DNA of 64,000 bases from the NCBI GenBank assembly GCA_965645245.1, contig OZ287088.1, positions 992,001 to 1,056,000 on the forward strand, read 5' to 3'. The notes under the pieces are model-generated. The model made no database searches, had not been told where the DNA came from, and was given only the letters and a program-made list of their open reading frames with translations. Positions 48,034 through 62,747 of the stretch are shown here, in pieces. This DNA is from Massalongia carnosa. Its lineage: Eukaryota. Both the position numbers and the translations under genes were made by a program. The first letter of the stretch is position 1. Each line of letters starts with the position of its first letter.

Positions 48034-51000
48034 TCAAGCTGACGAACAAATACCGTCCTCCAAAGCTCTCGCGTCCTGAACAAATTTGCTTTTTCTGTAA
48101 ATGCCGGACCTGCTAAAAGTAGTGGTCTGCCACACAGAAGGCAAGAATTGTCCCAGATGAGATTTATCCTCCTGTTCACCCGATGCGTTCGACACCGCAA
48201 AGAAGCCCGCATCAAGCAACGATTGTATGTTTTTTCGAATGGCTCGGCACACGTTGGTGTGGGATTGAGCTTTGGCTACATTCGGGCTTCCAAGGCTATA
48301 GCTCGATTCTTGAAGCATGGCCTCTAGAGGTCGGTACGGATGGTCGTCTTTTGCATACTCGAGTAGAGCTCGGATGGCGAGAACCCAATCCTCGCCTTTC
48401 ATTGGCTTGACGGCTATTATTGACCCCAGTTCTGCTGTCACGATAGCCCAGAAGTCATCCACCGTGACCCCGGCTTCGATTACCACCATTCTGAATCGTT
48501 GTGTCCTAGTCTCAGCTCTCGAGCTCGAGACAATGATAGACGCAGCAACCTCATTGACGTCCGCAACAGCTAGCCAGAAGTCCCCATCTGCAACAGGATA
48601 GCCACCAATAGTGATGCAAGCTTGGACGAGACGCCACAAGAAGTCATCCGTGTTTGGAATACCTTCGTCTTCCGTTCCAACGATCAAGCCAGGTTTTACG
48701 ACCGAATACGCGACTCTTGATTTTTCAGTTTGGGCCACTTTCGACACGAGCTGCTCGGACACAAACTTTGTCTGACTGTAACCATTAGCGTTCGTCTCGA
48801 TGCGTGACGAGAGCAATTCCAATTCCTCCACACGATGTACCTCAACTCCTCCTGAGACGTAGGTAAAGCTGGCAGGAAAAGGCCATCGACGAATAGCAGC
48901 TAGCAGCGCCACTGTAGAGTCAACGTTGGCCGCCTTGAGTGAAGAATAAGGCGCTTGCCATTGGACAGCGGCTCCGTTGTGAATGATGACAGAAATCCTC
49001 TCTTCCGGTGTACAGTCTCCTTCCAGGATTCTCCAGTGGTGCGGTGAAAGCCCGAGACGAGGCTCGGCAAGATCACCTGGCCAGCAAATTATACGGGGAA
49101 TGTACGATGGTGACCACCACTTTGCTAGCAAAGCGGCTTGTTTAATGCGGTCCAATGCTCTGGTCGCATCCTGGGCTCGTACGTGAACAATAACCTTCCG
49201 TAGAGACACATCATTGAGCAATTGACGTAAGATCTCAGAGCCTAGGTAGCCCGTCGCACCTGTCAAGAAGACAATGCTTCCACCTGTTGTTATTTGTAAC
49301 ATAGGCTCTACTCGCTGAGCAGGAATAGCTAGAAGCGCTTCATACGAGGCTTGGATTTGCCTCTGAAGGTCGACCTTGCCAATGTCATCACGGGCCGAAA
49401 TTCCTGACTTGCGGTCAGAAATAATTTCGGATAAGACTGAGATGTTGAGAGTATCATCATATAGAACTGCGATGGGAAGATTGACACTGAACTCCTTGCG
49501 GATGAAGGCGAGGAAATTGATAAGTTGGATGGAGTCAAGATTCAGCGCTGACAAGTTGAGGTCCAGCTGCGAGGATCTTGTCACGACACTGTCGTCCTTT
49601 CCAGCAGAGATCCTGACCAGCTTTTCGCTTAGCCGTAGGCCAATGTGATCCGCCTGGTCAATGTACGGTAGGATCAAATTGGTTTCGTGAAGCTTTAGAT
49701 GAGACTCGGCTGATTCTCGTATTTGCTTTGCTACTTCTTTGCGGTCAAGTTTTCCTGATGGTAGCAATGGCATACTCTGAGCCAACCGATAGCGACTAGG
49801 GATCATATGCTGGGGTAAAATTCTCTTAAGATGGGATTTAATATCAGACACACTACCGATACCCGGGCTCACCAAAGACTGAAGCAAGGTTTGAGGCTGA
49901 ACAGTCGCATCCCAAATTCCGCCGCAGAATATCAAAGCGATGAGCTGTGATACATCTTCTTGCTTCGATAACTCTACCGCCACACCTGACGCCTTCGGGA
50001 ACAGCTTCCCAAGATGGTACTCGACCTCGCCAATCTCCACTCGCTGACCACGAATCTTGACCTGAGTATCCTTACGTCCCTCGAAAATCAGCGAGCCGTC
50101 ATCGACATCATATCGCACAACATCCCCAGTCTTATAGAAGCGTCTGCTCATGCCTTCTGGATTGATCGCCCAAAGGGGATTCACAATGAAACTTGCCGCT
50201 GTTTTCTCCGGGTCATCAAGGTATCCACGCCCGAGAAGAGGACCTTCAATCAGCAGCTCGCCGGCTGCACCTATTGGCACTTGTCTGTTATGATCATGGG
50301 GATCAACTATCCATGCGGAGCCTACGATGACTTCGCCAATGTTCCTCGTATCAGTAGATCTGGTCAGGCCTTTCTTGATTGTACTGATGACGGAGCATTC
50401 TGAAGGTCCATAACTGTTCATGAGGCAGAGCTTATCTGCCCAAGCTTCTTGTTGGTCTTTGGCAAGAGCTTCACCCACCAACGCGAGAATCTGGAGACTG
50501 GGTACGTCCTCAGGACGAATTTGTCGTGCGAAGGAGGATGTGAAAGATGCAATATTGACGTCCATTGACCGGATAACGCTGGTAATGTCCCCCATATGAT
50601 CATCACTAGAGGGCACACAGAGACAGCCACCAGCCATTAGAGTTGATACTATCTCTTGTATACAAAGATCGAACGAAGGCGACCCGAAGAGTAGATTACG
50701 CGACTGGGGTCCCAATTCGTACACTGGAATATGAGCCATAGCCCCAGCGTAATACGATCCATGTGTAATTATAACACCTTTAGGCTCTGTTCAAAATTCA
50801 GGTCAGCCTTTTCGACCACCAAAGGTAGGGTTTAGAAAATACGTACCTCCAGTGGACCCAGAGGTAAAGACTACATACATGGCATTTTCAACAGATAGCA
50901 AATCCAAACCATTTACTTGTAAATTAACAACGGCTGCTCCCATCGAGGCATTTGATTTGAAGAATTCAGCATCCACCACCAAGGGACTAGAGAATATGCT

Positions 51001-60667: not shown

Positions 60668-62747
60668 ATGGAGTTCCACACGCCATCATGGGTTCCCCAC
60701 ATATCCGTTTCTACACCAGACAACCAGCTTGTGGGCGACTTTGTGGTTGAAAGAAAGCATAGCCTTTATGAATGGTCTAACGACAAGCCTGCGGTAGTGT
60801 GTGCTTTGACTGGGAAATCGTATACTATAAACGATGTCAAGAATCGGGTATCAAATCTCTCAAAAGGCCTTTCCAAGCGCTTGGGGTGGTCTCCAAACAG
60901 CAATTCCCCATGGAATAAAGTTGTCGGGATCTTGAGCTACAACACGGTGAGCGCCAGCCCCAGGACTGGCCCGCGACTGTCATCCATAACTCAAGGAAGA
61001 CGCGACCGGCGTTCCGAAAAATCTACGTGAACTCCGCTAATAACCATGTAGATCGATTTCTTGATCGCATGCTGGGCGGTCCACAGACTCGGAGGAATAT
61101 GCCTTCTTCTACATTCAACAAGCTCAGCATCTGAGGTTATATCCCACTTGGAAAAAGCGAAGTGCAATATCATATTCACCTGTCAGCCTCTTTTACCGAC
61201 CTGCCTAGAAGTTGGCCAAGCGATATCTATCGAGATTTACCTATTTGACTTGCCAAATGAGATCCCAGATCCCAGTAAAATCAAACAGAGGCTGGCTCAC
61301 CTCGTAGAGGAAGGCTCCCTTCTGGGCGATCTGGAAGACGTGGAGTGGAGTCCTGCTCAAGGTCGTGAGCAGGTGGCATATCTGTGTCCCACCAGTGGCA
61401 CTTCTGGAAAACAGGTCTGTGATTCGTAGTATATAAAGACTAGGAGCTACCAGTACTGATCCCAAGATGGCAGAAACTTGCGCAACTTACTCATTTCAAC
61501 GTTATATCCAACATTGTACAGTCGACCACCTATGAAAGTGACTATAAGAGAGGACGCACCGAGATCGTGATAGGAATCCTTCCGTTGAGTCATAGTTACG
61601 GTCTGATACTGGGGCATGTGTCGGCTTGGCGGGGTGATTGTGTCATCCTTCATCCTCGCTTCGACATGCAGGTGATGCTGCAATCTATTTCACAGTGGAA
61701 AATCGAGAGGCTTTATCTGGTATGGTGGATCATTTCCATTGCCCCGTCCGAGAACTCCACCAGAAGCAGAGCGCAGTCCATGAGTCCCGGCGCCTGTAAT
61801 ATGCACTGAATCTCTCGCAGGTTCCCGCGATAGTAGCAGCTCTGACGGCCAACTCCTTTCTTTTCGAAATCTACGACGTCTCTTCTGTGAACTCGGTCGT
61901 CACGGGTTCGGCTCCCTTTGGTCCTCGTATGGCCGAATCCCTGAAGGCTGTCCAGCCTGATTGGCAAGTCTTGCCCGGATACGGTATGCTCCTTGAAAAT
62001 GGTTCCTACTGCCTGGCTCAAGCGCTAATATATACGAGGGCTGACTGAATCTGGCGTAATCGTGTCTTTCACAAGTCCAAATAGCATCTATCTTGGATCT
62101 GACGGCTGTCTCATACCACTGGTACAAGCCCGGCTAGTCAGCGAGGACGGGAAAGTTGTCGACTCCCATGACCGGTCAGGCGAGCTGCTGCTTCGCTCGC
62201 CAAGCATAATGAAAGGTTACCTCGGTGATGATGCCGCTAACCTATCAACATTTGATGATGATGGGTGGTTGCGAACTGGAGATATAGCCACTTTTCGGAA
62301 AGATGCGAAAGGCGTTGAGCATTTGTTCATTGTTGACAGGAAGAAGGATATCCTGAAAGTCAAGGTCTTCCATCGCGCCCTGCAACTCATCAGATGCTTG
62401 AATGCTGACCTCATCAGGGAATCCAAGTGTCGTCTGCCGAAATCGAAACACAACTGCTCTGTCATCCTGCGGTCGATGAAGCTGCTGTGGTGTCCGTGCC
62501 AGATGATGATGCTGGTGAACGTCCATTCGCTTTCGTAGTACGTTCGTCAAAAGCCAAGGCTGAGCTTGATGACAAAACCCTTAAGATGGAGATCAGTAAG
62601 CATATTGAGGAGACGATGAGTGAGCCTCATTGGTTACGGAAAAACATCGCTTTCGAGACAGAGATTCCCAAGAGTCACAATGGGAAAGCACTGAAGTATA
62701 AGCTTAGGGGCTTGCTTGTATCGCGAAACGCTCGAGTTGAGGGATAA
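60668..62747 (+). CDS. Acyl-CoA/acyl-AMP ligase (4CL-like ANL family, InpC-like, ~568 aa); exons 60668-60946, 61052-61414, 61474-61719, 61821-61983, 62039-62364, 62418-62747
   Basis: [47 protein letters not shown] and IPKSHNGK. Five introns give one open frame; intron 4 needs a rarer GAG acceptor. Confidence 0.92.

Follow-up and report, generated by a model that had tools for sequence, protein, structure and literature searches.

Fellutamide-type peptide aldehydes are potent proteasome inhibitors, and a copy of the target embedded in a biosynthetic cluster is the textbook case of resistance-guided genome mining. Yeh et al. 2016 reportedly described the inp cluster of Aspergillus nidulans, and Lan et al. 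2020 are said to have first noted a cluster of the fellutamide family in Lobaria pulmonaria, a lichen fungus. The question addressed here is whether a proteasome β6 gene that lies beside a nonribosomal peptide synthetase (NRPS) gene in a 64,000-nucleotide stretch of contig OZ287088.1 of Massalongia carnosa (hereafter the window) is a pairing of this kind, and how much of the pathway surrounds it. The evidence presented below makes it very probable that positions 48034-62747 of the window, which stems from a lichen-type ascomycete, hold the InpA, InpE, InpF, and InpC genes of a fellutamide-family (inp-type) cluster, an assignment drawn from sequence comparison, and the nearest named relatives of the window's proteins come from lichen-forming Lecanoromycetes. 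Of the five sequencing runs listed as containing all or part of the stretch, one is labelled a lichen metagenome and none is an RNA run. For comparison, the fellutamide B cluster of A. nidulans (AN3490-AN3496) comprises inpC, inpD, scpR, inpE, inpF, inpA, and inpB according to PMC10734572 (Jenkinson et al. 2023).

The initial annotation had described four apparently intact genes within 15 kb, with the NRPS and β6 genes divergently transcribed, and both points are borne out by the gene models. These were derived from homologue alignments and splice sites and then spliced and checked by script from their coordinates, giving four complete genes between 48034 and 62747 with no internal stops and with GT..AG boundaries at all seven introns. 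The spliced products are an NRPS of 1541 amino acids (aa), a β6 subunit of 257 aa, an FSH1 hydrolase of 374 aa, and an acyl ligase of 568 aa, which together represent ~8.2 kb of intact coding sequence in the order A-E-F-C. The NRPS gene is read from the minus strand and the β6 gene from the plus strand, with 1662 bp (52720-54381) between their start codons. This shared intergenic region matched no Pfam family at the curated cut-off in open reading frames (ORFs) of at least 45 aa, the only two matches being at chance level (E 0.018-0.047), and it is presumed to act as a bidirectional promoter.

The InpA-type terminal NRPS occupies 48034-52719 on the minus strand, in two exons (52719-50847 and 50786-48034, stop included) separated by an intron at 50787-50846. 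Pfam matches to Condensation, AMP-binding, PP-binding, and NAD_binding_4 across 48034-52767 of this strand define a condensation-adenylation-thiolation-reductase (C-A-T-R) architecture. The intron is 60 nt long with the form GTACGT..CTGAC..ACAG, and its removal restores the A-domain core motif FTSGSTGEPKGV. Two stops in the A domain had raised the reading that the gene is a pseudogene, which we rejected, as both fall inside this canonical intron. The HHxxxDG motif, the A-domain core motifs, the carrier serine (LDSIQ), GATGYLG, and the reductase YxxxK are all kept and align with those of the orthologues.

The relatives of the NRPS were sought with its C-terminal 918 aa as the query. Among the 120 matches listed, the window's own product is followed by lichen-type proteins at 77-88% identity and a 1536-aa protein of Lecanora helva at 68%, then by further lichen-type proteins at 58-62% and Clarireedia jacksonii at 56%, and then by proteins of 1491-1523 aa from Penicillium chermesinum and Aspergillus section Nidulantes at 43-49%. 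Beyond this block, complete proteins reach no more than 38%, and five shortened lichen-type fragments show 46-52% over 72-82% of the query. At full length, the NRPS is 65.8% identical to the L. helva protein (P0130) and 45.7-46.0% identical to four Aspergillus InpA orthologues, a comparison outside which the proteins of A. nidulans FGSC A4 lay. The four are A. undulatus 292095, A. recurvatus 202657, A. similis 127360, and A. multicolor 171966, whose identifiers match the InpA list of PMC10734572. Since that study places the InpA homologues from the Lobaria, Bisporella, and Spathularia clusters at 45-46% identity to AN3495, the window NRPS is as distant from its Aspergillus counterparts as accepted members of the family are. 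The 45 aa that precede the C domain are also conserved with the Aspergillus InpA orthologues, which fits an enzyme still fed by a partner synthetase, an indirect hint.

The substrate pocket of the A domain, whose ten inferred positions were placed from motif anchors, reads DLQTAVSVIK in the window as opposed to DLYTAVAVVK in the Aspergillus InpA orthologues, a difference at three of the ten positions, and the Q/S/I state is common to the lichen relatives. Judging from these residues, a different last amino acid in the product is possible, and its identity cannot be predicted from the pocket. As a separate observation, lichen-type InpA is nearer to that of Leotiomycetes (55%) than to that of Eurotiomycetes (46%). 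The class phylogeny pairs Lecanoromycetes with Eurotiomycetes, and the similarity pattern could reflect differences in rate or an old transfer.

The InpE-type extra proteasome β6 gene lies on the plus strand at 54382-55203, with exons at 54382-54482 (101 nt) and 54531-55203 and a 48-nt intron at 54483-54530. Pfam PF00227 (Proteasome) matches 54511-55203 with an E-value of 1.1e-35, and the identity of the subunit as β6 is clear: the best solved relative of exon 2 (residues 1-223) is the yeast proteasome component C5/β6 (E 1.4e-74), and the match to human PSMB1 is at ~1e-48, compared with only 1e-13 for β3. Nine relatives share 74-87% identity with it, including those of L. helva and Lepraria finkii; the copy of Flavoplaca austrocitrina, which also belongs to the lichen subclade of the tree described below, shares 68%, and that of Bisporella (P0011) 72% over exon 2 and 68% over the whole protein.

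Whether this gene groups with housekeeping orthologues was one half of the refuting condition set in the initial annotation, and a maximum likelihood tree of exon 2 answers that half. The tree had 121 rows, the window copy and 120 listed relatives, with Aspergillus InpE not included. A clade of 17 rows, with a value of 99 in the Shimodaira-Hasegawa-like approximate likelihood ratio test (SH-aLRT), contains the window copy and all five copies that lie on a contig with an InpA-type NRPS, the Bisporella InpE homologue among them; the copies of Lepraria finkii and Flavoplaca austrocitrina are members as well. The remaining 104 rows, also with an SH-aLRT value of 99, are housekeeping copies arranged by taxonomy, with those of the lichen genera Xanthoria, Caloplaca, Bacidia, and Chaenotheca among them. 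Forcing the window copy to group with those of Xanthoria, Caloplaca, and Bacidia was rejected by the approximately unbiased (AU) test (delta lnL 133.7, p-AU 2.6e-5). On these exon 2 sequences, the β6 belongs to a paralogue clade linked to the cluster.

Five columns of exon 2 split the 17 cluster-linked copies from the 104 housekeeping copies. At positions 8, 88, 93, 125, and 191 (window 54532-55200), the cluster-linked copies carry I, H, L, A, and N, compared with T, Q, I, V, and S in the housekeeping copies. Position 125 is within the YDP[A/V]GSY segment, which we take to line the inhibitor-binding S3 pocket of the neighbouring β5 site. Because the yeast β6 also has the I and L states of these columns, a contribution to resistance is more plausibly sought at A125 and N191. 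That inpE confers resistance is stated in PMC6517689, and the five diagnostic substitutions could be the basis of self-resistance.

The InpF-type FSH1 serine hydrolase gene is a single exon on the minus strand at 55959-57083. Its product, which presumably is linked to LovG through the FSH1 family, gave a match to PF03959 FSH1 over 55959-57218 of that strand (E 2.1e-42, 145.6 bits against a cut-off of 21). By eye it carries GFSQG, a conserved Asp, and HPGAH, a putative Ser-Asp-His triad. A search of 1.84 billion representatives returned one full-length relative, P0255, at 71% identity (70.0% by BLASTP), followed by proteins at 49-56%, P0258 of Bisporella and one of P. chermesinum among them, and P0255 lies on one contig with a β6 (P0004) and an NRPS (P0129). 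The hydrolase shares the FSH1 domain with other LovG/FSH1 hydrolases and differs from them in a C-terminal extension of ~115 aa, which is common only to P0255. Two named proteins come nearest: P0258, a serine hydrolase of Bisporella that is 48% identical and shares its contig with the InpE homologue of that fungus, and P0261 of P. chermesinum, which shares a contig with that species' InpA-like NRPS. P0258 is 405 aa long, as against 406 aa for the Bisporella InpF homologue in PMC10734572. Ten further FSH1 relatives include three that carry a name, and no Aspergillus InpF is among these. By sequence, we assign the hydrolase to the InpF type, with an indirect link to AN3494. In sequencing run X1, the segment 54112-57417, which spans the β6 and hydrolase genes, was at ~2x the depth of the NRPS and ligase genes, and a second sequence variant was present.

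The fourth gene, an InpC-type acyl-AMP/CoA ligase, is encoded on the plus strand at 60668-62747 in six exons (60668-60946, 61052-61414, 61474-61719, 61821-61983, 62039-62364, and 62418-62747). Five ORF pieces of that strand between 61052 and 62747 match Pfam AMP-binding and AMP-binding_C, and the spliced protein, with its five introns all GT..AG, is collinear from end to end with full-length homologues. Exon 2 gave 14 matches. The ligase is 85.9% identical to P0241, 79% to L. helva P0242, and 57.1% over 566 aa to A. undulatus 298800. PMC10734572 lists this last protein as an InpC orthologue in its supplement and gives 57% identity between Lobaria InpC and AN3490. In four named species, a relative of the ligase shares its contig with an InpA-type NRPS. 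A metagenome scan with P0241 gave 16 loci, none of which (0/16) had a relative of the β6 or of the FSH1 hydrolase. Four fungal-looking loci of that scan (L005, L010, L011, and L012) place a ligase of 43-50% identity beside a multi-module NRPS on the opposite strand; these are probably other lipopeptide clusters and have no bearing on InpB here.

The same gene families also travel together elsewhere, as judged from placements on a common contig that were deduced from equal contig sizes and locus tags. A β6, an NRPS, and a ligase share contig 271442 of L. helva (NRPS tag 9557, ligase tag 9553) and contig 418197 of Clarireedia jacksonii (NRPS tag 11430, ligase tag 11433), tags that are 3-4 genes apart. 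Contig 21922 carries a β6, an NRPS, and an FSH1 hydrolase, contig 33629 a β6 and an NRPS, and contig 263749 of Bisporella a β6 and an FSH1 hydrolase, and in each of P. chermesinum, A. puulaauensis, and A. undulatus an NRPS is found with a hydrolase or ligase on one contig. Because these families share single contigs in other fungi, the grouping of the four genes in the window is beyond what chance would give. Homology, synteny, and the β6 tree thus agree with the initial annotation in identifying the genes as InpA, InpE, InpF, and InpC types, and the closest counterparts of the NRPS, ligase, and hydrolase, by sequence as well as by placement on common contigs, are the matching inp-cluster genes in other fungi.

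If the pathway is expressed and operates as in A. nidulans, from which its chemistry and its resistance role are here projected, the ligase would activate a fatty or 3-hydroxy fatty acid, and a two-module NRPS of the InpB type, encoded outside the visible window, would build an acyl-dipeptide. The C-A-T-R NRPS would then add the last amino acid and free the chain by reduction, giving a proteasome-blocking peptide aldehyde. The FSH1 hydrolase may assist in transfer or release, and the extra β6 would replace the housekeeping subunit and so protect the producer. The fellutamides themselves are 3-hydroxyacyl-Asn-Gln-leucinals, and valinal and leucinol relatives occur in one strain, according to PMC7071103.

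Compared with known systems, the locus has the same C-A-T-R NRPS, extra β6, FSH1-type hydrolase, and acyl ligase as the inp cluster of A. nidulans. It differs in gene order (A-E-F-C here, C-D-R-E-F-A-B there), in the repeats inside the gene group, and in inpB, inpD, and scpR, which A. nidulans has and which are absent from the 64-kb window. Lobaria pulmonaria, which is of the same class judging by the nearest relatives of the window's proteins, has InpA adjoining β6, the ligase on the far side, and similar identities to Aspergillus. Its cluster is without inpF, its annotated β6 is short (91-120 aa), and its InpB is documented, whereas the window has a hydrolase, a full-length β6 of 257 aa, and no InpB. 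The hydrolase appears to be optional, as Lobaria has no InpF and A. nidulans does not strictly need it (PMC10734572). Bisporella sp. PMI_857, whose β6 and hydrolase are among the nearest named relatives and whose β6 adjoins InpA, belongs to a different class (Leotiomycetes) and has a complete cluster with InpB, transporter, and regulator.

Several points weigh against the assignment to an inp-type cluster or against the integrity of that cluster. Only one NRPS locus (48055-52716) was found in the 64 kb by tblastn with three InpA-type and two other C-A-T queries, with no InpB, and the 75 ORFs of at least 45 aa around the genes gave no transporter or regulator domain in Pfam, only transposon fragments. 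High-copy repeats separate the hydrolase from the ligase and follow immediately after the latter, so that rearrangement or loss of the remainder of the cluster is possible. A variant seen in runs X1 (815/1550) and X5 (32/54) is without one T of the TTT at 56634-56636, inside the hydrolase frame; the second version of the β6-hydrolase segment may be an allele, a duplicated segment, or another genotype, and its hydrolase would be frameshifted unless compensated. As for the β6, the group used in the AU test was picked after the tree had been seen, and, with Aspergillus InpE outside the tree, the link to InpE runs via the Bisporella homologue named in PMC10734572.

Taken together, the points on integrity could mean that the locus is a relic, in which transposons have separated or destroyed InpB and the transporter, the remaining genes are open only through the recency of that loss, and no product is made. 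Besides the missing InpB, transporter, and regulator and the frameshifted hydrolase variant in two runs, the repeats inside the gene group and on both of its sides would fit such a history. When the assembled contigs of three sequencing runs were aligned to the window for word depth and variants, depth was 50,000-350,000 at 47500-48050, 57418-59621, and 62928-64000, compared with ~830-2400 over the genes, a contrast which implies low-copy genes among high-copy repeats, the latter making up the flanks and the gap that separates hydrolase and ligase. The repeat at 57418-59621, between the hydrolase and the ligase, is a retroelement remnant with an RT_RNaseH_2 fragment at 59000-59137, and it is the only segment with indices like those of repeat-induced point mutation (RIP): its GC content is 0.377, its TpA/ApT ratio 0.91, and its (CpA+TpG)/(ApC+GpT) ratio 1.02. 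The repeat after the ligase, 62928-64000, is at depths of 84,000-116,000 and includes a Tc1-like helix-turn-helix fragment at 63290-63604 on the minus strand, whose HTH_SB match is weak (E 0.0023). Transposon debris 3' of the NRPS, at 44724-48033, contains pogo-type fragments (Pfam HTH_ABP1_N and DDE_1) at 45231-46598. In-frame stops in nearby genes, described below, point the same way, as do the partial fellutamide clusters of A. navahoensis, A. fructiculosus, and A. falconensis (PMC10734572).

Against a relic stand the ~8.2 kb of coding sequence without a stop or a broken splice site, in which every catalytic motif that was checked is retained and none of the cluster genes has a RIP-like composition. 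The aligned contigs show 486 differences, 40 of which were listed. Among the 12 of 29 indels that were listed, the NRPS carries a single one, a 6-nt insertion from run X5 that keeps the frame. Moreover, 39 of the fellutamide-family clusters among those in 41 genomes are complete (PMC10734572). The position of the window edge also matters here, as the window ends 1.25 kb beyond the ligase, inside a repeat. On its opposite flank, InpA borders 8 kb of transposon debris, and no further NRPS occurs over 48 kb. InpB is a two-module NRPS of 2327 aa in A. nidulans, with a family range of 2300-2600 aa, and in the Lobaria reference genome InpA is at 77523-83145, β6 at 85614-86075, and InpB at 99981-107890 (PMC10734572). 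The Lobaria order is therefore A-E-...-B, which the A-E-F-C order of the window matches, and InpB lies ~14 kb beyond β6 on the side where our window ends, so that InpB would fall past position 64000 if the layout were alike here. In Lobaria and Spathularia, too, no regulator is annotated (PMC10734572). InpB and a transporter may lie just beyond the right end of the window, and we consider a relic unlikely. Because a tripeptide needs InpB and the window edge is close, the production of a lipopeptide aldehyde is inferred here and not shown.

A different reading of the single visible module would be a shortened pathway, without InpB, in which the ligase feeds acyl-CoA to the C domain and the product is an N-acyl amino aldehyde in place of a tripeptide. 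In favour of this, the NRPS opens with a C domain and closes with a reductase, but the C domain and its preceding 45 aa are collinear with those of Aspergillus InpA orthologues that act downstream of InpB, and the window edge explains the absence of InpB, which together make a shortened pathway very improbable. The weakest alternative, that the β6 is an ordinary housekeeping subunit that by chance lies beside an NRPS and is no resistance gene, is scarcely credible: the protein keeps all general β6 features, is 66-69% identical to housekeeping copies compared with 68-72% to some members of the cluster-linked clade, and is the one copy from which the β6 of this genome is known, but it falls within the NRPS-linked clade with the high support on both sides and the AU rejection given above, has the five diagnostic residues, and accompanies an NRPS on at least four other contigs.

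The remainder of the window is rich in mobile elements, with copia-type gag-pol frames at 2683-7338, 10521-14942, and 28825-33285, a Tc1-type transposase at 18621-19745, and gypsy-type and pogo-type fragments at 40204-46672. The copia-type element at 2683-7338 on the minus strand is one uninterrupted frame of 1552 aa with the Pfam domains Retrotran_gag_2, gag-pre-integrase, and RVT_2, and, given its unbroken frame and its domains, this copy may still be active; the copies at 10521-14942 and 28825-33285 are broken. Four further genes, set apart from the NRPS by 12-32 kb and by copia elements, are without a counterpart in the inp cluster. The initial annotation had described the P450, 2-oxoglutarate (2OG) oxygenase, and haem-oxygenase-like di-iron oxidase (HDO) genes among these as decaying, and this is partly borne out by the reading of their frames. 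The HDO-like frame at 20110-21978 on the plus strand has an in-frame TAA and TAG, the 2OG oxygenase frame at 16011-17135 on the minus strand is split by two TAG codons, and the P450 at 34638-35754 on the plus strand consists of two weak Pfam fragments. The first HDO stop is directly before the part matched by Pfam, and its explanation as the start of an intron (it overlaps a GTAAGT) was rejected, as the Pfam match resumes at the next residue. The glutamine-synthetase-like ORF at 22793-24247 on the minus strand (485 aa) is open. These 2OG, HDO, glutamine-synthetase, and P450 genes may be the remains of another biosynthetic gene group. Two adjacent minus-strand ORFs at 36635-39953, of 656 and 441 aa, were also seen, the first with two chitin-binding CBM5/12 modules and a weak match to the bacterial Ig-like family Big_13 and the second without a Pfam match.

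PMC10734572 already describes fellutamide-family clusters with an embedded β6 from 41 genomes in three classes, the Eurotiomycetes, Leotiomycetes, and Lecanoromycetes, Lobaria pulmonaria included, and the locus is therefore a further member of the family and not new in kind. Lecanora, Lepraria, Flavoplaca, Clarireedia, and P. chermesinum are unmentioned in the text and supplement of that study, which, among the listed papers on fellutamide and lichens and judging by titles and the opening of abstracts, appears to be the only one that treats a lichen fellutamide cluster; the inp gene names were not found in PMC8707610. The lichen and Leotiomycete β6 copies form separate subclades that follow class boundaries, a pattern more in keeping with vertical inheritance accompanied by loss than with the recent horizontal transfer put forward in PMC10734572. 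That the inp-type cluster is widespread and old in lichen-forming fungi and that this branch makes a new congener is a tentative proposition that we hold as possible but doubtful. The number of lichen-type relatives reported here goes slightly beyond the published record and suggests that lichen fungi carry the family more often than Lobaria, the one published example, would indicate, and the locus offers a full-length resistance-type β6 and a hydrolase that the Lobaria cluster is without. If the missing synthetase is gone, the locus would show the decay of such a cluster under transposon pressure; if it lies just outside the window, the cluster might yield a fellutamide variant. The conserved residues that set the cluster-linked β6 apart also provide testable candidates for the mechanism of self-resistance.

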